A stretch of 63,962 nt of DNA, the filler included, from Welwitschia mirabilis (Eukaryota): the NCBI GenBank assembly GCA_051453625.1. It is 5 parts of one record of this genome, joined end to end, with 100 filler letters (N's around TTAATTAATTAA, not from the genome) between each part and the next. Parts side by side here need not be neighbours in the genome. Positions count along the whole stretch, not along the records: positions 38,530 to 58,027 come from JBOZIK010000001.1; 4 more parts are not named here. One strand, given 5' to 3'. Positions 4,719-57,140 of the stretch are shown piece after piece. Position 1 is the stretch's first letter. The number at the start of each line of letters is the position of its first letter. The notes beneath the pieces are model-generated. The model was not told the origin of the DNA, ran no database searches, and was given only the letters and a program-made list of their open reading frames with translations. Both the position numbers and the translations under genes were made by a program.

Positions 4719-6662
4719 GTAAGTTCTTGATGAATCTTATTCTTCACCTAAGATTCTATTTCAAAAACAACAATTTTCTGTTTTGTTCCTCATAAAAGCT
4801 TATTAGCAAACATGCTTTAACAAAAGGTGGGAACATAATTTTACATCCTATTGACACTCAACATCACCTCCATATTATTGGAGACCCCTAAAAATTTCAA
4901 TCTGCAAATGTTATATTTAACTATATTTAAATTTGTGCTTGTTTTGAATGAAGCATGCTTCCATTAACCAAAAGTGGACCAATTAGTCTTTTGTTAAAAA
5001 TTGTAGATTTCTTGCATTATGCTATCTATGAGAGCAAGATCAAAGATATAAGGAGAGGAGCACAAGCAGGGCAGATAACACTTACTCCTTAGAGAAATGA
5101 ACTATGTGCAGCACAACCAACAAATATGGAAGAAAGAACATATTAGGATTAGAGATACCACCCACGTCAATAGTAGGAATCTCCTCAATTGTACAATAAC
5201 TACCCACAAGATTAGCTTAATTGGTGTTCTCATCAACATCATCCGGAGCTAAGGGTTGAACATAAGCTCATCCTACAAGGATATCTCCTTCCACAACCAT
5301 GTGCATCTAACGTATTNNNNNNNNNNNNNNNNNNNNNNNNNNNNNNNNNNNNNNNNNNNNNNNNNNNNNNNNNNNNNNNNNNNNNNNNNNNNNNNNNNNN
5401 NNNNNNNNNNNNNNNNNNNNNNNNNNNNNNNNNNNNNNNNNNNNNNNNNNNNNNNNNNNNNNNNNNNNNNNNNNNNNNNNNNNNNNNNNNNNNNNNNNNN
5501 NNNNNNNNNNNNNNNNNNNNNNNNNNNNNNNNNNNNNNNNNNNNNNNNNNNNNNNNNNNNNNNNNNNNNNNNNNNNNNNNNNNNNNNNNNNNNNNNNNNN
5601 NNNNNNNNNNNNNNNNNNNNNNNNNNNNNNNNNNNNNNNNNNNNNNNNNNNNNNNNNNNNNNNNNNNNNNNNNNNNNNNNNNNNNNNNNNNNNNNNNNNN
5701 NNNNNNNNNNNNNNNNNNNNNNNNNNNNNNNNNNNNNNNNNNNNNNNNNNNNNNNNNNNNNNNNNNNNNNNNNNNNNNNNNNNNNNNNNNNNNNNNNNNN
5801 NNNNNNNNNNNNNNNNNNNNNNNNNNNNNNNNNNNNNNNNNNNNNNNNNNNNNNNNNNNNNNNNNNNNNNNNNNNNNNNNNNNNNNNNNNNNNNNNNNNN
5901 NNNNNNNNNNNNNNNNNNNNNNNNNNNNNNNNNNNNNNNNNNNNNNNNNNNNNNNNNNNNNNNNNNNNNNNNNNNNNNNNNNNNNNNNNNNNNNNNNNNN
6001 NNNNNNNNNNNNNNNNNNNNNNNNNNNNNNNNNNNNNNNNNNNNNNNNNNNNNNNNNNNNNNNNNNNNNNNNNNNNNNNNNNNNNNNNNNNNNNNNNNNN
6101 NNNNNNNNNNNNNNNNNNNNNNNNNNNNNNNNNNNNNNNNNNNNNNNNNNNNNNNNNNNNNNNNNNNNNNNNNNNNNNNNNNNNNNNNNNNNNNNNNNNN
6201 NNNNNNNNNNNNNNNNNNNNNNNNNNNNNNNNNNNNNNNNNNNNNNNNNNNNNNNNNNNNNNNNNNNNNNNNNNNNNNNNNNNNNNNNNNGCTTTTTGAT
6301 TTTGGAGATTCCAGTTCGCTAAACACTCTAGAGCAGATTACGGATCGTTTCAAATCGTGAACATTGAAAAAAGTGAAATTACATATATTTTAATTTTTAT
6401 AAATATATCATTGCAATTGTATTGACAATAACTTGTAAAATTAAAAACTATAATGTCAATTTTCAATACCATGATTAATTTTTAATGAAGGCACATAGGT
6501 AATTGAACATTGTAATTATATTACTTCGAGTTTCAACCACACAAGTGGTATAATCAAGTGCTATAATATAGTAAGTCACGAGTACAAAATTACAAATTCC
6601 ACTATGTAAAATTGCAAACCACAAAGTCCAAATCATGATCTAGATGCTTTTCCTCCATGAGT

Positions 6663-9450
6663 TCAAAGCTTGGCCTTTTGAATAAGCCTTGCTTCTTGTG
6701 CTACAATGGCTTCCTTTTGTCTAGTGCTAGTCTCAAGAAAATCAATATCAAAAGGACTTATATATGGCTCACTAGTAGCTACTCTAGCACTCATAAGATG
6801 GCAAGAAAGGTTGCCAAGGCCACTATTAGTAGAATGGTTAGGATCAACTGAGGCATCAGTTGGTACATCTGAAATCCACTTTGTGATTACTGAAACTCTT
6901 TGATCATCATCAAGCATGTCTATAAGGGCATCCAAGTCCATGTGGTCATTATTTTCTGTGGGACTAGAAACTCTGAAATTGATTTTCATATTATAGTAGA
7001 CATAGACAAGTTTATCCAATCGTTGCATGGTTGGCTTTGTTTGCTTCTTTATGTAGATATGCTCAAAAGGCACTCCAACTTCACTCACATCCTAAAGCAC
7101 TACAAGGTTAACTAAATATTTTCAATGATAATTTCCTTGGCTCAAGAGTGGAAATACCCCATAGCTCCCACCATTGACTAACAAAATACAAATTATAAAT
7201 TGGAAACTAATTGATCAAAAAAATTAATAATAAAAGGATAAAATAAAAATATAACTATGCTAATATGGAAATTTGCAAATTTAATATGTTATTATGGTAC
7301 CACTTGTAGATACCGCGTTGATTTATCTCTGAGCAGAAAGCCTATTAAACAAGGCTTCTTCCCTTCTCACAAATTGTTAAAGTTGTTTGCATATAAGCTC
7401 TTGCTCATCCTAGTTAGGAGCTAACTTCTCCATTGTATCATGGAAACCGAGGCTAACTTTTATATCAAGTTCATATTTAACAACTTTTTTTGTATAGACA
7501 AATCTAGGGTTAAGATGGTGTGCTATTGCATTCAAGGGTCTATGGAGCTGGCTGTTTCACCTTCAATCAATAATATCCCAAAATGGTTATCCTTGCCTCC
7601 GTCATTATTGTAATAGTTTGCAATTGCCTCCTTAGCTATGTCCATTGCCTCATATCCTTTTGCCATTGGACAATTATCCCCATTAACAATGCAAAGCACA
7701 TGGACAAGGGGCTCAAAAGCCTATATGAAATCATGAAAAAGTTGTCCAGTTTGTACATAACTAAATGACAATTATAAAGTGAAAGTATAAAACTCTGATT
7801 CATAATTAATTTTCAGATTTATGATTTACTTTTGCCTTCATAGACTCGCATACTTTCTCCCAAAATGCCTTATTATAAACTAGCTCACTATCTTATCTAC
7901 CATGAGGAGAAGTACGATATTGGATAAAGTCTTCTCCATGTAGCCACCTATCGGAGGCAAAAGCTTGTATAAGTTGTAAGCACTTACTCTCCAACCTTTT
8001 TAATGTGAGGAAGTGTGTGGCAAAGGGAGTTGTAGCAAGCCTGACAAGATCTTTTCCTTCAGTATATTTCTTCACAANNNNNNNNNNNNNNNNNNNNNNN
8101 NNNNNNNNNNNNNNNNNNNNNNNNNNNNNNNNNNNNNNNNNNNNNNNNNNNNNNNNNNNNNNNNNNNNNNNNNNNNNNNNNNNNNNNNNNNNNNNNNNNN
8201 NNNNNNNNNNNNNNNNNNNNNNNNNNNNNNNNNNNNNNNNNNNNNNNNNNNNNNNNNNNNNNNNNNTACCTCTATTATATGCTCAATTTTTGACAAGTCC
8301 TCCAATAACAAATCAAGCAGTGAGCGGAACAAGGTGTCCAATAAATCGATGGATGGTTCTTCATCAACTCTTCCCTTGCTGTGAGATAGTTGGAGGCATT
8401 ATCTATAATGAATTGCACAACATTATTTTCCCCAACAAAGTTCACTATCCCCTTGAATAATTTAAGTAAATAATCCAATCTTTTGACATGATCAAGGGCA
8501 TCCACAAATTTGATGAATACTATTCCATTCTTAGAGGCTACCAAAAAGTTAATTATTGTCCTTCATCTAGAGGTTGTCCATCTGTCAGCCATAACATAGT
8601 ATTCATATTTCTCCCATGTATTTTGTAATATTCATTTAAGGCATTAGAATTCTTAAATGAACAAATCTAACAAAGTATAAAATAAAACTCTCAAACATTG
8701 TAAATTTCACTAAATCAGTAAATCACTAAATTGTCAAATACAAAATTACGTTACAAAATAAAGACTTATAATTATTCCTTACCTTGTGCTCCTCAAGTAG
8801 TTTATCAATGTCACTTGCACAATCATCAAGAAGTGACCCTCGCCATTGATTGTATGTACGTGCTTTAAAACCTGGAGTTGCTGTGATGAGTGCATCAAAC
8901 ATTTTTTGTTACAATGCGCTATTTGTAGCATTGAAGGGAATTACACAAGCATAGAACCAAGATGCAATCATTTTTCTTACACCTTCATATACATCTTTGT
9001 TTTGTGATCCCATTCCCTGAATGGTGGGTTGTGAACCAGGTGTGGTGAATGATGGAAATACATTTGCCCCTTCACCCACATTAAAAATGGATTGTTTGTG
9101 GATTGCAGAGTATAAGAGCTACCTAATCCAACATAATTAGAGGAGCCCTCTAAACATAATTACACACCAAATCTTGTGGAAGAAACAAATTGTTGAAAAG
9201 AGTGTTTACTTCTTGCTTTTTTTGCCTCAACTCCTTGTTCCACTCTATGCCACCATATTTAAAATTTTTCTTTTACTTCTGTGGGTGCTTTCAGACATGT
9301 TATCCCCTTTAATTTTATTCCATCTAAGTGGAATTTTAATCGGAAACTCCACCATGGCACTCTCTATTACAAAAAATGCTAATGTCAATTTTTGGTTTGG
9401 ATCTAGGTGTTGCCCAAGTCCAACCAAAGGCTTTTCTTCGTCCTTCGTCC
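6663..9450 (-). pseudogene. hAT transposase pseudogene
   Basis: Fragments VGENNVVQFIIDNASNY...IYWTPCSAHCL (DUF659, CxAHC motif), KDLVRLATTPFATHFLTL and the dimerisation-domain motif RLDKLVYVYYNMK, with many stops and frameshifts. Confidence 0.88.
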
Positions 9451-10553: not shown

Positions 10554-13500
10554 ATGACCTCAAACAACTTCCTATCCTCACCTTGTCTATTTCATAGATA
10601 AAACTATGGTTCTTGGGCTATTAAGATGAAGGCCTATTTGCAGGCCTTTGACTTGTGGGAGGTGTTGGAAAATTACTTGGATCTAGGATCACTACCAAAC
10701 AACCCAACCTTAGCTCAAATCAAACTTCACGATGAGGAGAGGTCAAAAAAATTTAAAGCCAAAACCAGCATCTATTCTACACTCTTAGAGGATGTTTTCA
10801 CAAAGATAACGACTTGTGAAACTCCAAAGAAAGTTTGGAATTCACTCAAGGAGGAATACCAAAGTAATGATGGGACAAAGAGAATGCAAATATTGAATCT
10901 CAGAAGGGAACTTGAGATCCAAAGGATGAAGGAATTTGAGAGCATCAAGGACTATGCGAACAAACTCAAGGCCATAGTTAACAAGGTCTAATTGCTTGGG
11001 GAAGAGCTTACTGATAGAAGGATTGTAGAGAAAGTCCTTGTTAGCTTACCTGAAGGATTTAAGTCAAAAATATCTTCACTTGAGGATTCAAGAGATCTTT
11101 CACAGATTAGTTTTACAAAGCTGATCAATGCCTTGGAAGCACAAGAGCAAAGAAGGGCAATTAGACAAGAAGAAATAATTGAAGGTGCATTTCATGCTAA
11201 GACAAGAGAAAATGCACAATCAGGCAACATAGGCAAGAAACAAATTGGAGATTGGAGACATAAGAAAGGAACTTCAAGCAGTAAAGATGAAGAAATAAAG
11301 GGAAATTTCCTCCATGTTCACACTGCAAGAATACATCAAACTCTCAGAAGTATTGCTGGTTCAGACCTGACATTTAGTGCAGGTCATGTAAACAAATGGG
11401 GCATATGGAGAAGGTTTGCAAGAACAAGCAACGAGTTCATTAAGCACAAGCTGTAGAAAGCCAACAAGAGCAGGAGGAGCAGTTGTTTNNNNNNNNNNNN
11501 NNNNNNNNNNNNNNNNNNNNNNNNNNNNNNNNNNNNNNNNNNNNNNNNNNNNNNNNNNNNNNNNNNNNNNNNNNNNNNNNNNNNNNNNGAAAGCCAACAA
11601 GAGCAGGAGGAGCAGTTGTTTGTTGCAACTTGTTTTGCAACTAATAAAAGTAATGATGCATGGCTAATTGACAGTAAAGTATGTTCAGGAAGCTAGATAA
11701 GACATGCATCTCAAAGGTTAGAATTGGTCATGGAGATTATCTTGAAGTCAAAGGAAGAGGAGTGGTAGCAGTTGAACTCCAACAGGTATTAAACTTATTT
11801 CAGATGTGTTATATGTACCTGAAATTGATCAGAATCTCCTAAGTGTGGGCCAGCTATTAGAGAAGAATTATTTTGTATTTTTTAAAGATAACACATGCAT
11901 AACACATGACTCTGTTGCTTGTGAATTTTTTTCTATCAAGATGAAAGACAAGTTCTTCTCTTTGGATTGGAAATGTGTTGCTTGTGCATCTCCTTGTTTA
12001 GTTGATCAATCTGAACTTTGGCATAAAAGCTTGGGGCATTTTCATTATTCTGCATTGCATTTCTTTCAAAGGAGCGAACTTGTGTAGGATATGCCAATGA
12101 TTACAACAAAGTCTGAAGTATGTGAGATTTGTCAACTAGGAAAGCAATTTCGATTGTCATTTCTAGTTAACAAAGCTTGGAGAGCAACCGAAAAGCTACA
12201 GCTTGTCCATACTGATGTTTGTGGCCTAATGAAGACCCTATCTTTTAGTGGCAGTAGATATAATATTGCATGTATTGATGATTTTAGCAGAATGTGTTGG
12301 GTTTACTTTTTGAAATTAAAGTCTGAGGTTGCTGCTGTGTTTTGGAAATTTAAGAACTGGATTGAGAACCAACGTGGTTTGAAAACCAAGGTGATTAGGT
12401 CAGATAATGGGATTAAATACACTTCTGAGAAGTTTAATCAGTTTTGTGAAGATGCAGGCATTGAGCATTAATTTACAATAACTTATGCTCCTCAACAAAA
12501 TGGAGTTAAGTGAAAGGAAAAATAGGACAATTATGGAGATCTCAAGGTGTTTGCTTTTTGAAAAGAAAATGCCTAAGAAGTTTTGGGCTGAGGTTGTTAA
12601 CACTTTAGTCTATTTACTTAATAGACTCCCAACAAAAACACTAAAGGGGAAGACACCATTTGAAGCTTGACATGGTTACAAACCCTCTATGCAAAATTTG
12701 AAGGTGTTTGGCAATATATCCTACACACATATTTCAAATGTGAAGAGAGATAACCTAGATTACAAGTCAGAGGTTGGGATTTTTGTGGGCTACAATAGTA
12801 TCATCAAAGGTTATAGGGTTTATCAACCTTTAATAGGAAAGGTGATAGTTAGCTAAGACATCAAGTTCAATGAATTTGTAGCCTGGAATTGGGAAAAAAA
12901 AACAGAAGTGGAGCCTGACAAACTTATTCCAAGACCTGTATTGATCCATGAGGAGTAGGAGGATGACACTAGTGATGATGAAACATATGATCATCAACCT
13001 GTAAGTGGTACAAGATCACTTGCTAATATCTATGCAAGATGTAACTTAGCTGTTTTTGAGCTTGTAGGTTATGAAGAAGCTGCAATGGATCCAAAGTGCA
13101 TTGAAGCAATGGAGGAGGAGTTGAGAATGATAGAGAAAAATCAGACATGGATCTTAGTGGACAAACCTAGCCACAAGAAATTTATTGGTGTAAAGTGGGT
13201 ATACAAAACCAAACTCAACCCTGATGTATCTGTCAATAAACACAAGGCAATGCTAGTTGTCAAAGGTTATGCTTAGCATTTGCTGTGGACGTCTCAGAGA
13301 CATTTGCAACAATAGCATGACTTGACACTATCAAAATGCTATTGGCATTAGTAGCTCGAAAGGATTTGAGAGTTTACCAGCTTGATGTCAAGTCAGCCTT
13401 CCTAAATGGCTTGGAGGAGGAGATTTTTGTTGAGCAACCAAATGGTTTTGTTATAAAAGGAAATGAAGACAAGGTTTATTTACTTAAGAAGGCCTTGCAT

Positions 13501-36697: not shown

Positions 36698-38190
36698 ACT
36701 CTTGCTAACTTGCAAGTTACAAAAAGAAAGAAAGAAAAAAATAAAAGGGAAAGACAAGGGAGTTGAGATTGGTTTTGTGAAACTTCGTAGGGAAAGTAGG
36801 AAGCAAGCAAGCTCCAAGTGTGCCCAATTTGTCCTCCTGCAAATCCTTACTTGACCATATGCAACATTAACCTGTAACAAACTTCAGACCATCAAGTGTA
36901 AAAGCTCGAGTCATAGCGACATAGTCTCATTCGAGTGTTGCTACATTCAACAGTCACTGATCCTTCACAGCCTTGCAATAAAAATAGAAAGTGTGAACTT
37001 ATAGTGCACAAGATCTATGAAACTACAAAGATGAAGATCAATTAACTTATTCGGATTCACTCGGTTGACCAAAGCAAAACTTGATAGTGCATTGCTACTT
37101 AAGTATTCCTAGTACAAACTAAATTGAAACTAACAATCAAAAGAAAAGAACTCTTTAGTATTAAATCAGAAAAATGTACATTACATCAAAGATGAAGGAA
37201 GCAGAAAGGACTCCTCAAGCTCCTTGGAATAAGATCACATCTCAAAGAAGTAATCAGAGGGCCATTATGCCTTAACACTCTAATAATTTTTACTTTACCC
37301 AAATGAAGGATGAATACAATGAAGGACTCAATGCCCTATTATAGGTGAGCATGAGGTAGGGGTGGTTATAAGATCTTAATGTATAGCATTAGATGGACGA
37401 CTACATAATCATGACATTCGGTAGGATGATTTATCATTTATTACATTTTGTACAAATTCTCATGATGATGCTAATACTTGGAATCTCGGTGTTGTAGTTA
37501 CTACCAATTATTATCATTATCATCTATCTCTATAATTATCCTAGTTAGGCCAATCAAATGTCATAAATGTGAGTAATTCTCCTTACTACTATTTATTATT
37601 CAGAATGAAGGATATCTTCAAGATAAAAATTAATCTAACTCTAGTTGACTAAGTTATTTATGATATTTCAAGAACATAAAATTGAAAGTGATCTACCCAC
37701 ATAGACCAATGGCACTGATATTCCTAGCTAATGCCATCTACATTCTAGGTTGAAGTATCTTTATATTTTACAAAGTTCTTTAAATGTGATAGCTAACCTA
37801 AAAATATCATGGAAAAGTTATAAGTTCATAATTAATATTAAAAATCAATATAAGACATGTATTGTGATAAAAGAAGTTAAATTAATTTCTTCTATTAAAA
37901 TAAATTTTCCATTTAACTTGATTGTAATGTTAAATTTTTACATGTTAACACACCCCCAAATTAGACTTTTACTAGTGCCTTAGAAAAAAGTTGATAACAA
38001 CATGGTTAAACATGGAAAAATGTTTTAAATCAAATTAATTAAGTGTGAAAATGATATAACTTTGTAAATTTTATGACTAATTGTTTTTTGTAGTTAAGCA
38101 TAAAAATGAAAATTTAATGAAAAATAATGTAAAACTAGATGTCATATCCCCTAATCAAAATTCAATATGATGAAATTGTGTTAAAATAAT
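36698..38190 (-). mobile_element. Athila-like 3' LTR (36698-37950) with PPT and adjacent internal sequence
   Basis: Aligns with 44878-45534 and about 38640-39390. Minus strand reads TTTGGGGGTG-TGTTAACATG (PPT then LTR start). Confidence 0.85.
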
Positions 38191-41852: not shown

Positions 41853-42453
41853 CTATAGTTTCAGGCTGAGCATAATTGGACGCATTCTAGGGATTATCAC
41901 AGTTTCCATAAGCAAGGTGAGGTTTAATAGGTGTTTCAAACGGATTATGTGCCCAACTCACCTTAAAGTTTTCAAAAACGGTTTACGAAATTTACTAAAA
42001 GGCTTACGTTTTCATTAATTATTCAAATTTTCAGAGGTGTCTGATATTTGAACAGTTTTACCAAGTTGAAAAGAGAAGTTTTGTGATTTTTTAGAGTGTT
42101 TTGAGCGAAATGGCTCATAGCACCGATAAGGGAAGATGGCGGCAATGGTCAAGATGAGAGTTACCACTACAAAAAAACAGAGAGTTTTGCAAACATCTCG
42201 TGCATCGAACAATGTTACAAGGTCGCAGAAAAACCAAAACAAAAATAAGAACGTGAGCACACACGAAATCTGTGCTTAACAAAAATTGATTAAAAAATTT
42301 TAGGACTTAAAAAATTTTTGGACGTAAAAAATTAAAAAAAATTGAACTTAAGAAATTTAGGACTTAAAAAATTTACAAGGATCGTGTGCTGCAATGAAGA
42401 CAGGAATAAAAAAGTAATATTGAAGAGCAAAAAAAAGAATCCAAGAAAAGAAA

Positions 42454-42509
42454 CAAAAGATAGCACAAAGTGCTTTCGGGGAGTTACACCCCTCGTCTGC
42501 GTGCTTTTG
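42454..42509 (-). ncRNA. Type I hammerhead ribozyme-like motif (U4A core variant)
   Basis: Minus strand reads CAAAAG-cac-G CAGACGA GGGG-tgtaact-CCCC GAAA GCAC-ttt-GTGC TA T-CTTTTG. It has stems II and III, the GAAA box, a CUA cleavage triplet and a bulged stem I. The core reads CAGACGA instead of CUGANGA. Confidence 0.72.
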
Positions 42510-42724
42510 AATTTCTGATTTCTGAATCTTGGAATACATGGAGGAGATTACACCTTGAAATAGGAGAGGCTGCCCTAACTATTGGCAGGAAAGGGGGCCC
42601 AAAGAAAGGGCAAGAAAAAATTACATTTCAAATTTCAAATTCCCATCTTTAGAAAATAAGAAACGGAAAGAAAATAGAATAAGTAACACCCCATAAAGTG
42701 GATAGGAAGCATGAGGTGAGAAAA

Positions 42725-44428
42725 CTAAGATCTCCTGACTGCTCTGATTAAACAGGAATCTCTATGGAATTGGCTACATGTAACAAGTTTCCCAAGTTTA
42801 GGAGGATTCTGCTAGCAAATTGTTGGATCTGGAATAACTGGGCTCGGCATGTGATCATTTTGGGTAAGCCTAGAAAGTATAGGATTTAGGATTGGGCCCA
42901 TGTTACAAGATCTTGTCGAAGGACTAAAATCCATTTTGAAAACAAGGGGGTTCCCTTTCTTCTTCCAAATGCTTCCATGTATGCTATGGAGAAGAGTTGT
43001 TCTATCAAATGCAGAAACTTTGTTGAAGCAATGTAAAAGGAACTTGGAAGGGTAGCCGCAGGCGCAAAGGCAAAGATACAGGTTACGCTTGGAACTGGAA
43101 TAGTCCCAAAGGTTGGATTCCCGCATCAAGTATCTGCAAGGCTCTGAAATAACGAAAGCCTTCTTCTAATGGACTGGATGCCATGAGGAGAAGGGGATAT
43201 ATTGATAGGCATTCAAAGGTTTTTGGTAGCATTTGGTGGACCAAATTCCTATAGAACAAAACGTGGGACTTTTGAAAACAAACAACATCTAGAATGTTAA
43301 CAAATTCTTGGGATACTGAGTAATGTNNNNNNNNNNNNNNNNNNNNNNNNNNNNNNNNNNNNNNNNNNNNNNNNNNNNNNNNNNNNNNNNNNNNNNNNNN
43401 NNNNNNNNNNNNNNNNNNNNNNNNNNTTGGGATACTGAGTAATGTGAATGCTGAGGTACATAGAATTGTAGCTCTCCAAAAACATTGTTAAGGAATCTAA
43501 GGGACTAGTCCAAATACCAAAGGCATCATCAATATAACACTTGTAGTAGAAAAGAAAATGTATGTTCATATTGGAGAAAAGTTGCTTCTCTAGATGACAG
43601 AGGGATAAACAAGCATACATCACTGCAAAATTACTGCCCATAGCAGTACCACGAACCTCTTTGAACAAATTGCCATCAAACTCCCAATAATTTTCTCCAA
43701 GGACAAGAGANNNNNNNNNNNNNNNNNNNNNNNNNNNNNNNNNNNNNNNNNNNNNNNNNNNNNNNNNNNNNNNNNNNNNNNNNNNNNNNNNNNNNNNNNN
43801 NNNNNNNNNNNNNNNNNNNNNNNNNNNNNNNNNNNNNNNNNNNNNNNNNNNNNNNNNNNNNNNNNNNNNNNNNNNNNNNNNNNNNNNNNNNNNNNNNNNN
43901 NNNNNNNNNNNNNNNNNNNNNNNNNNNNNNNNNNNNNNNNNNNNNNNNNNNNNNNNNNNNNNNNNNNNNNNNNNNNNNNNNNNNNNNNNNNNNNNNNNNN
44001 NNNNNNNNNNNNNNNNNNNNNNNNNNNNNNNNNNNNNNNNNNNNNNNNNNNNNNNNNNNNNNNNNNNNNNNNNNNNNNNNNNNNNNNNNNNNNNNNNNNN
44101 NNNNNNNNNNAGAAGATAAAGAAATGATGGCCTCTTGATAAAGCTCCTGATTAGGAAAAGGATGCAACATAAAATACTCTTCAACCATAGATTTAAGAGC
44201 TGAAAGACTTGCTTCAGTAGGGATGCTAGGATACAGGGATTCCACATCGAATGTAAAGAGGAATGCATATTGTGGGATGGTTAAAGAACTCAAATCCCAA
44301 ATGAGAGAAACCGAGTCTATGAGATGGGTGGGCTAGCAGAATAGGATGGGGAAGAGTAAGTAGTAAACGAGGCGAGATGTTGGTTCCAACATATACCCAG
44401 AGTAGCTGCAGATGGGATGACCAACCAA
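42725..44428 (-). pseudogene. PLE reverse transcriptase (RT core, thumb and C-terminal extension) with stops
   Basis: LVGHPICSYSG (GRPI motif), FTFDVESLYPSIP (DVESLYPSIP at 44219-44248), ENYWEFDG..GTAMGSNFA (GTAMGS at 43633-43650), YIDD (43525-43536), VNILDV, YQKPLNAYQYIPFSSWHP, L..CGYP, NPPKLGKLV. Terminal stop at 42725-42727. Confidence 0.92.
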
Positions 44429-44754
44429 ACTAGTGTTTTTTAACAACGAGCTTACACAAAACTGGAATTAAAAATGCCAAAAAATTAAAGGCACGCAAAG
44501 TTAATTAAAATTTTTCGTTTTTAAGTTTTCTCCTTGTGCTACCTACAGACCTACACAGAAACAAGTTAGAAAGAAAGCAAACCAAGCCAGTTCAGACATC
44601 ACTAGAATGACCAGTACCAACCGCTGAAAGGAAAAACACACAAAAGAAAAGGAAAAATGACCAGTTCGGGTATCACTAGAAAGGACCAGCACCCACCACT
44701 AGAAAAATAAAATCTAAAAAGTTTCGCTCTTTCTGAACAGCTACCGTGCCATTA

Positions 44755-55329: not shown

Positions 55330-57140
55330 TAAAGGTTTGGGAGCAAAGACTGATAAGGCTCAAAGAGTAACTCTTTCAGCAGTATTCAAATGGTAACTCT
55401 TTAAAAGTCACTCAAGTTCTAATCTTGCTAATTTAACTTATTCAATATGTGGATGATTCTTCTATATTTTGTGGAGTATTCGAGATATCTTGTAAACTCT
55501 TTGCTCCCTAAAAATCCAGGATTACATATTAACCTTCAAAAAAGTATGGCTCACACTTTTAACATGCATTAGAGGCAGATTCATGAAATGTAAAGAATTC
55601 TGAATCTGGCAATTAAGAGCTTATTTGAAAAATATAAAGGTGTTCCTTTTACTATAGGGAGAGTGAAGAAAAAATAAAGAAAGAATTATGGGGCCATATT
55701 CTCAATAAAATGGCAAAAGTGTTAGCAAGATAAGAAAGTAAATTTCTTTTTTAGCAAACAGAGCTCAGCTTATTCAAAGTTGTCTTCAATCCTTACCAAT
55801 TTTCTTGATGTCCTTTCTTTTTGTCAACTACATGGAAAAGTATGAAAGGAATTTTTTATGGAAAAGCACTAATGTTGAAAGAGCATCCATTTCAAAAATT
55901 GGATTCCTTGTGAAGGGCTGAAGGTGGTTTTGATCTATAAAAGATTTCATGAGTTAAATCTTTCTATCTTGGCTAAGATAGTCTAGCATTTACATTCAAA
56001 AAAGGGAAAATGGTTTCAAGTATTAAACGCCAAATATCTAAATCAGTATCCATTTCTTTGAAGGTCCACGTATTACTGCAAGCTATGCAATCTGTTATGG
56101 TTTGTAGAAATTTAGGAGATTGGTTGAATAATTATCTATTACAAATCTAACAACAAGAAAGTACTAAAATAAAATAGAAAAGCCGGCAAACAAAAGGAAC
56201 AACATAGAATTTACGTGGTTCGGGCTCTTTTTACCCTACCTCCACGAAAAGCAATGCAAAGCTTTATTGATTGATTAGGAGCAAAATGTGTCCAGATACA
56301 ACAGACAACCCTCTATCAAGTTTATATCGCCTTAGGGTTAGGGTTACAAGTCAATCCCCTTTTACAACTTTAAATAGGGTCAATGTTAAAACATTTCAAT
56401 ATAAATAATAATTTGGCTTCACATATCGACATTATCATACTCTAGGAAGTTATCCACTAGACCAAGAAGCGAGTAGATATAAAAAATGTGAATTAGCCCA
56501 AGGCTGCAATTCTTTTTCTCTCTAGCAAGATCAAATGAGTTGCCTTTTCTAGAGGGCCTTTAAAAACATGGTTGGGCGATTAGAAATTGATGTCACAGTT
56601 GCAAAAATGACAAATAATCCTTAGGACATTGCCTCTTCATTGACCATGGGCAAGGAAAGTTTGCAATTTTATTTTTTCAATGACAAAGTCGCAAATAATT
56701 CTTCCAAATAATGTTAAAAATCTAGTTAAACAATGGGATTGGTCTAATGGCAAACAAGAGATGAAAAGTACATTTTATCATTTGCTTCCACGTGTTTGAT
56801 TGCAACTTTGAAAAGAAAGCAAGTTCAAATCCTCTAGATGAAGCCTGAAAATTTAAAAAGAAATTATGTTATGAAAAGTTGTCATATTCCAATTTAATTG
56901 CTCGAGGGAAGGAAAGCCTAAAAATTTAAAAAGGAATGATGTAATAAAATATGAGATTATTGTCTTCATATTCCAATTTTCTTGTCTCTTCATCCTTGGC
57001 TTGACCCTTGTGATGGAGAAGTTAGGCAATCAAACCTTTATCACGCGAAGATTAGTTCACATTCCTTTTTCCTCTAGCTTTAGAGCCAAGGGAAGAAGCT
57101 AGATGCAGAATTGTTTCCTATCCAACATAGCCCCCTATCT
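55330..57140 (+). mobile_element. L1-type LINE remnant of the same family as LINE-A/B
   Basis: QYVDD near 55442 and colinear similarity to 26700-28200. Interrupted by a solo LTR. Confidence 0.72.
56137..56431. mobile_element. Solo LTR (295 bp) with TSD TTATC, inserted in the LINE
   Basis: TTATC at 56132-56136 and 56432-56436. Ends are TA(decayed TG)...CA. The motif ATTTACGTGGTTCGG...CCTACCTCCAC is typical of reverse-oriented Copia LTRs. Confidence 0.75.

Follow-up and report, generated by a model that had tools for sequence, protein, structure and literature searches.

The retroelement locus and its hammerhead-like motif

The window, which is the whole stretch of 63,962 nucleotides from Welwitschia mirabilis analysed here, is AT-rich, laden with transposable elements, and interrupted by 19 runs of N. 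Fragments of a Ty1/copia-type gag (Retrotran_gag_2, DUF4219) and of an integrase core (rve) at 10602-12468 on the plus strand are one sign of its richness in transposable elements. On the minus strand, the window holds the remnant of a reverse transcriptase (RT), followed by a hammerhead-like motif and a T-rich tail (Table 1). In the RT remnant, the first 226 residues are missing, the reading frame shifts, and a premature stop occurs at 42814-42812, where the 606-residue relative P0002 has a tryptophan; moreover, the remnant is broken by two assembly gaps (43327-43426 and 43711-44110). Homology to P0002 stops near 42767 and the last RT frame ends at a TAG at 42727-42725, the end of this open reading frame (ORF) being that of the 606-residue relatives. 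The RT pieces are 54-61% identical to the proteins P0001-P0003 and, overall, 40-61% identical to relatives of 489-621 residues. A Pfam search with these pieces returned no relevant family, and the only match, that of a 40-residue piece to Cortexin, was discarded as being at chance level (E 0.14; 12.5 bits against a cut-off of 25). The precomputed Pfam families for the RT are PF28514 and PF26215, and an RT-family profile compared with PDB sequences gave no match at E ≤ 1.

Homologues listed for P0002 include proteins of Cryptomeria (64-68% identity), Ginkgo, Selaginella moellendorffii (P0023, 42%), and Closterium, while the RT pieces of the window match Cryptomeria japonica proteins at 53-59% identity and Ginkgo proteins as well; by protein homology, the closest named relatives of the lineage are gymnosperms. 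An RVT_1 domain is combined with a GIY-YIG endonuclease (PF01541) in 8 of the 120 P0002 homologues listed, at 31-35% identity and E-values of 1e-59 to 6e-65. The RT is, therefore, homologous in sequence to the GIY-YIG-fused RTs of Penelope-like elements (PLEs), and these homologues, together with the Selaginella protein, connect it with the Penelope-like superfamily, including the members of the latter that have no endonuclease. Pfam detected no GIY-YIG domain in P0001, P0003, P0010, and P0011, nor in either ORF of L010, a relative described below; the window copy has none in its surviving part, although an N-terminal endonuclease (EN) may have been lost with the missing N-terminal third. Judged from the sequence, the element is of the EN-less PLE type and not a canonical combination of RT and GIY-YIG.

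Table 1. Features of the retroelement locus, in positions of the window
Feature	Position	Strand	Details
RT remnant, three blocks, 5'-truncated, frameshifted	42767..44431	-	Residues 227-604 of the 606-aa P0002
Extended, bulged outer stem UCCAAGA.../...UCUUGGA enclosing the motif	42440..42533	-	Free minimum free energy (MFE) fold of 42420-42550, -26.8 kcal/mol
Hammerhead-like motif	42454..42509	-	Earlier delimitation, 56 nt; sole descriptor match in the window
AGCACG, helix I 5' strand in fold B	42500..42505	-	Partner UGUGCU 42467-42462; MFE; pair probabilities 0.54-0.69
Core box CAGACGA (C3-A9)	42493..42499	-	Place 42498 is A4 here, U4 in nearly all other family copies
Helix II GGGG/CCCC, 7-nt loop UGUAACU	42478..42492	-	In every computed fold; pair probability ~0.83
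GAAA box (G12 A13 A14 A15.1)	42474..42477	-	Sequence
GCAC-UUU-GUGC-U	42462..42473	-	Fold A: helix III; fold B: minimal helix III (AGCACU) and helix I 3' strand
T-rich tail, three TTTTTTA(A/C)GTCC(T/A)AAA units	42299..42373	-	TCCTAAA at 42362-42356 and 42305-42299

Type-I hammerhead ribozymes are composed, in this order, of the 5' strand of stem I, CUGANGA, hairpin II, GAAA, hairpin III, UH, and the 3' strand of stem I. The motif lies on the RT sense strand, where the minus strand from 42509 to 42454 reads CAAAAGCACG-CAGACGA-GGGG-UGUAACU-CCCC-GAAA-GCAC-UUU-GUGC-UA-UCUUUUG (56 nt), letter for letter as in the original prediction of a type-I hammerhead at this place. Several particulars of that prediction were likewise recovered on re-reading, namely the 4-bp complements GGGG/CCCC and GCAC/GUGC with the GAAA box, an A instead of U at core position 4 (place 42498) as the sole deviation of the core, a distance of about 215 nt from the stop codon (215 nt from the TAG to 42509), and an outer extension through GAAA/TTTC and TCCAAGA/TCTTGGA, both of which are used in the free MFE of 42420-42550. 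Thus, the core C3-U4-G5-A6-N7-G8-A9 is not intact in the window copy (CAGACGA) and is intact in nearly all other copies of the family, whereas the G12-A13-A14 box (GAAA, 42477-42474), the A15.1-U16.1 pair, and a position 17 other than G are all present, as are three helices, the G10.1-C11.1 pair, and an open-ended helix I.

Two registers are possible for helices I and III, because the segment UGUGCU at 42467-42462 has two possible partners, the internal AGCAC (fold A) and the AGCACG on its 5' side (fold B). In fold A, which is that of the original prediction, helix III is formed by GCAC/GUGC, U16.1 is 42462 and A17 is 42461, and the predicted cut falls between 42461 and 42460. In fold B, AGCACG/UGUGCU makes a 6-bp helix I, U16.1 is 42469 and U17 is 42468, the predicted cut falls between 42468 and 42467, and helix III is reduced to 2 bp within a non-palindromic hexamer, AGCACU.

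A relaxed type-I descriptor, drawn up with the candidate already known, allowed at most one mismatch in CUGANGA/GAAA/UH and asked for stem II of at least 4 bp, stem III of at least 3 bp, and stem I of at least 5 bp, in which a bulge of 3 nt or less was tolerated; on both strands of the whole window it matched once, at 42454..42509. The same descriptor gave 68 matches in 579 first-order Markov simulations of the window, one of them with an exact core, which amounts to an expectation of about 0.12 per window (~122 kb scanned) and to one of about 5e-4 for 500 nt of sense strand downstream of an RT.

Other copies of the family and relatives with conserved hammerheads

Other genomic copies of the family were sought in Logan contigs of two DNA runs (X1 and X5), and transcripts in raw reads of two RNA runs (X15 and X18), both compared with 41900-43320 at 80% likeness; the data on copies are summary tables in which the 40 best-supported differences are listed, with 407 lesser ones beyond these. 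The element is highly repeated, with 1126 and 1384 contig pieces in the two DNA runs, mostly less than 95% alike, and DNA depth peaks over the bins of the motif (1200 and 938 at 42428-42475). At place 42498, the T of the window's plus strand is read as A, that is, as U4 in the sense strand, in 532 of a depth of 544.3 in X1 (56 contigs) and in 590.9 of 596 in X5 (60 contigs), and U4 is also found in the RNA reads that cover this place (3/3 in X15 and 1/1 in X18). Since nearly all other copies carry U4, the core of the family is the canonical CUGACGA and A4 is private to the window copy. Each of the 40 listed differences is the majority reading by depth in one or both DNA runs and, within 42454-42509, no place besides 42498 is among these 40 best-supported ones (407 lesser differences lie beyond them), so the majority form of the family would combine the core CUGACGA with otherwise the letters of the window copy. 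The original prediction had left it undecided whether the motif was decayed or a natural variant, and had proposed the consensus of other copies as a check; with U4 in about 98-99% of the depth and CUGACGA as the consensus core, the part of this check that concerns the core came out positive and supports decay.

Most differences between the window copy and the others are C>T (114) or G>A (135), out of 387 places in X1, an excess as expected of the methylation-driven decay of an old repeat. RNA reads matching 41900-43320 number 33 in X15 and 15 in X18, and those at least 95% alike are 0/33 and 0/15. No cluster of RNA ends occurs at the motif, where the depth is 2-4 and the reads all come from other copies, and these reads are thus uninformative on cleavage.

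The other copies stop matching at 42356, just past a TCCTAAA unit of the tail, where 11 loose ends are seen in X1 and 12 in X5; a second set of loose ends lies before 42290-42292 (9 in X1 and 11 in X5). Position 42356 is likely the 3' end of the family unit and, as the contigs stop matching there, the motif would lie about 100-150 nt from that end. The TCCTAAA unit is one mismatch away from the plant telomeric CCCTAAA. The tail at 42299-42373 possibly derives from the tail with which EN-minus PLEs prime at telomeres; the window contains no telomeric array near the motif, only (TTAGGG)2 at 56332.

A protein-guided scan of metagenome contigs provided 49 RT loci that are 30-49% identical to P0002 in their best segment (47 of them at 38-49%) and about 43-53% identical to the window pieces. 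A plain regular expression located exact-core motifs at 38 places in these 49 loci, corresponding to 24 distinct sequences, and the covariance model R1, built from the motifs of the relatives (alignment A2), gave 40 matches in 38 of the 49 loci, every one of the 40 on the RT sense strand. In the downstream flanks that were scanned, the hammerheads lie 114-550 nt past the RT match. Their common form, ..CA/CUGAnGA/GC-stem II-GC/GAAA/4-nt palindrome (CUAG, CAUG, CCGG, UGCA)/UU^UG.., is by its sequence that of a canonical type-I hammerhead in which helix III is minimal and palindromic. In helices I and II, 93% of the cells are paired versus 27-42% when the partner is slid, both sides have changed in five of nine pairs, and the observed covariation score was reached by none of 500 shuffles; these two helices covary among the relatives. 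Two motifs, at L027:5749-5808 and L049:2135-2194, have a G5>U change in the core (CUUAnGA), are otherwise intact, and were detected by R1 only; they are decayed cores in relatives.

Several of the relative loci contain a second copy of the hammerhead upstream of the ORFs. L010 is a partial tandem: its stretch 1439-2514 recurs at 6579-7745, and its two hammerheads, at 1707 and 6846, flank the ORFs, as in pseudo-LTRs (pLTRs). Within its 5.1-kb tandem unit, a frame of 682 codons precedes the RT frame (L010:2908-4956, plus strand); it is proline/threonine-rich, has a helical middle part and no Pfam match, and may represent ORF1 as drawn for EN-minus PLEs. The original prediction had assigned the window motif to a pLTR; the hammerhead part of this assignment is supported. 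As to the pLTR part, this locus has a single 5'-truncated copy, and tandem copies were seen only in relatives. A second copy of 42200-42900 was not found within the window.

Telomeric repeats on the sense strand of the relatives are C-rich in 90 stretches, distributed over 22 loci, versus one G-rich stretch. Arrays of (CCCTAA)n or (CCCTAAA)n lie 271-1393 nt downstream of the hammerhead (L006, L007, L016, L023, L031, L033, L035, and 15 further loci), as exemplified by L031:6239-6301 and L023:5421-5630, and, because the hexamer and heptamer units occur in separate loci, the hosts seem to differ in telomere type. Nothing alignable to the 3' untranslated region of the window was found by blastn in the 49 loci. 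In viral contigs, the protein-guided scan yielded no RT relative and a pattern scan for motifs of the window type yielded 0 matches. Among genome contigs the pattern had one match, in a bacterial metagenome-assembled genome (L050:3800-3890); about one match is expected by chance for 20 specified bases, and this one is not a hammerhead since its core is CGGAUGA (CGGATGA in the DNA). It is flanked on either side by a 19-nt repeat, the two repeats being separated by 72 nt, and may belong to the spacer of a repeat array.

The hammerhead models of Rfam (clan CL00010) had no match in the window at the gathering score, nor in 271 nt at E ≤ 10, so the Infernal run with Hammerhead_1 (RF00163), another check attached to the original prediction, was negative at both levels. 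The same models gave 0 matches at the gathering score in 20 loci of exact-core relatives (L001-L020), while at E ≤ 10 a single Hammerhead_3 match of 20.3 bits was obtained in one of five loci (L001, L003, L012, L030, and L040). Being blind to exact-core relatives, Rfam provides a negative on the window that carries little weight and, moreover, annotation pipelines will under-report ribozymes of this lineage, whose exact-core members are missed by these models. R1, run on the window with filters off at E ≤ 10, returned 15 matches without the motif among them, and a 101-nt stretch with the motif scored about 0 bits. The best R1 match in the window, at 37701-37747 on the plus strand (15.7 bits, E 0.054), was rejected as chance, since GGCACUGAU...UGCC is a plain hairpin without a GAAA box.

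These scores bear on whether the motif could be a chance look-alike in AT-rich 3' flanking DNA, unrelated to any ribozyme, which seems very improbable. The lack of a score from Rfam or R1 fits such a look-alike, as do the finding of at least one match of the one-mismatch descriptor in 64 of the 579 simulated windows and the weak stability of the fold, the MFE of the 56-mer having a z-score of -1.36 with 18 of 200 shuffles equally stable. Nevertheless, the deviating core base is canonical in almost all the depth of other copies, the motif is on the sense strand just past an RT whose relatives bear hammerheads in 38 of 49 loci, and, in the register of fold B, it agrees with the relatives at 15 of their 19 invariant columns (read by eye). 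The four missed columns are A4, a G for A at 2.1, and the two columns of one flipped helix II pair, the second, which changes from C-G to G-C. The central idea of the original prediction, that this is the element's own hammerhead, thus gains support from the U4 of the family copies and from the sense-strand hammerheads that the relatives have in the same relative place.

Fold register and state of the window copy

The MFE structure of the 56-mer (42454..42509) differs from the fold of the original prediction, and the helix I that it draws is that of fold B. In the 131-nt context, constrained folding gives -25.1 kcal/mol for fold A versus -25.4 for fold B, with pair probabilities of about 0.29 for helix III of fold A and up to about 0.69 for helix I of fold B. 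The helix register proposed initially, and with it a cut after A42461, are therefore doubtful, as the relatives and the MFE favour fold B and the two folds are nearly isoenergetic. Sequence comparison and folding models together favour fold B as the ancestral register, with fold A as an almost isoenergetic alternative. A dimer route for the window motif is not evident, because the hexamer AGCACU of fold B is non-palindromic; its GCAC could conceivably derive from a palindromic GCGC through the CpG decay that dominates the family.

It is possible, but rather doubtful, that the active ribozyme of the family adopts fold A instead, as a monomer that cuts after A42461 and in which helix I (CAAAAG/CUUUUG) is bulged and helix III is stable, with 5 bp (A-GCAC/GUGC-U) closed by a UUU loop. 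The core and all three helices can be drawn in this way, and the energy of the 56-mer, -12.6 kcal/mol for fold A without the G-U pair, is better than the -9.8 kcal/mol of the full drawing of fold B; the near tie in the longer context and the helix III probability found there are likewise compatible with it. In addition, the dimer route of the relatives looks shut for a non-palindromic AGCACU, and monomeric hammerhead variants with a large helix III have been reported in fungal and protist PLEs (PMC4209133). However, AGCACG/UGUGCU is preferred by both the MFE and the ensemble, a 3-nt bulge in helix I would abut the core, and a long helix III is present in none of the 40 motifs of the relatives. 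Moreover, the spacing GAAA + 4 nt + UUUG of the window motif is the same as in 24/24 distinct hammerheads of the relatives, whose regular expression fixed only the first two U of UUUG.

The small difference between both folds, about 0.3 kcal/mol in the 131-nt context, is the basis of a further proposal that appears unlikely, in which the family hammerhead would be a two-state switch whose UGUGCU closes either helix I (fold B, with no usable helix III, uncut) or helix III (fold A, cleavage-competent). If this were true, self-cleavage would be gated by refolding, as opposed to dimerisation in the relatives, and the family would represent an undescribed regulatory variant of the PLE hammerhead, in an EN-minus lineage at high copy number inside chromosomes.

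With fold B as the favoured ancestral register, the motif is probably a dead or badly impaired type-I hammerhead of a plant EN-less PLE lineage, located on the sense strand about 100-150 nt from the 3' end. In this analysis, the window copy most likely no longer cleaves, because the element has lost its 5' part, frameshifts and a stop interrupt its RT, and U4>A, private to this copy, alters the CUGA U-turn. Low activity is reported for mutants with one or two changes in the CUGA turn (PMC9901934); a change in this turn that abolishes most activity would leave the window copy inert. Conversely, a natural active variant, in which the A4 form would have kept its self-cleavage and would serve, for instance, a host transcript, is the least probable of the alternatives considered. 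Atypical cores are known in PLE hammerheads, such as the U3-A8 covariation of Schistosoma (PMC4209133), which is nothing direct, whereas A4 is private to the window copy, this copy is within a dead, truncated element, none of the matching RNA reads is at least 95% alike at the locus, and the weak activity of CUGA-turn mutants (PMC9901934) also speaks against it.

In live copies, as in the literature on PLE hammerheads, the transcript would read through partial tandem units (pLTRs), fold into a three-way junction, and cut itself, and this self-cutting could serve to trim retroelement RNA of more than unit length, a role suggested by PMC4209133. The ancestral form would have been of the canonical type I, cut at 42468/42467: its helix I would have 6 bp (AGCACG/UGUGCU) and continue past an AUC bulge, its helix II would have 4 bp, and its helix III would be very short.

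Comparison with known hammerheads and Penelope-like elements

Hammerheads in the terminal repeats of PLEs are well described, including those of one plant (Selaginella). The kind of ribozyme is thus known, and the window copy is a relic of it. The case documents an EN-less PLE lineage that has its closest named relatives in gymnosperms, is highly repeated at interstitial sites, and retains a type-I hammerhead with an exact core as well as a 3' tail resembling telomeric repeats. Among the papers listed by the literature searches, no title or opening of an abstract describes hammerheads in gymnosperm PLEs, although the supplementary family lists of PMC8557442 and PMC4209133 may include the lineage.

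The window motif shares the type-I order of elements with Hammerhead_1 of Rfam (RF00163, clan CL00010), but it is below every reporting threshold, as are nearly all the exact-core relatives tested. The minimal hammerheads (min-HHRs) that Cervera & de la Pena 2014 describe in metazoan PLEs sit in terminal repeats and, like fold B of the window motif, have a very short helix III. According to that study (PMC4209133), min-HHRs work as dimers and are weakly active in vitro; their helix II measures 7-8 bp, their helix I is short, and one additional nucleotide precedes stem II, whereas the window motif has a helix II of 4 bp and a helix I of 6 bp or more.

The pLTRs of Selaginella moellendorffii PLEs carry canonical type-I hammerheads, and in canonical type-I PLE motifs helix I has 6 bp, helix II has 4 bp, and helix III is short, as given by Cervera & de la Pena 2014 (PMC4209133). 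As in the Selaginella PLEs, the type-I hammerhead of the window family is past the RT on the sense strand, and fold B has helices I and II of 6 and 4 bp with a short helix III, a likeness that is by description. The EN-deficient, telomere-associated PLEs of Selaginella resemble the present element, too, in their plant host and in an RT without a detected GIY-YIG, P0023 being 42% identical to P0002. By contrast, the nearest named RTs of the window family are of gymnosperms, the window copy has A4 and a non-palindromic hexamer at helix III, and its locus is interstitial and rich in transposable elements, with no telomeric array nearby.

In EN-minus PLEs, according to Craig et al. 2021 (PMC8557442), hammerheads adjoin telomeric repeats in reverse complement; the same paper summarises the Athena and Coprina elements (Gladyshev & Arkhipova 2007; Arkhipova et al. 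2017). The element resembles Athena and Coprina, as summarised there, in having no endonuclease; its relatives have a hammerhead by reverse-complement telomeric repeats near the 3' end, and L010 has a putative upstream ORF1; and the tail of the window copy contains TCCTAAA units close to CCCTAAA, this likeness being one of features. Unlike Athena and Coprina as summarised there, the window family is highly repeated and interstitial, with 56-60 contigs covering the motif.
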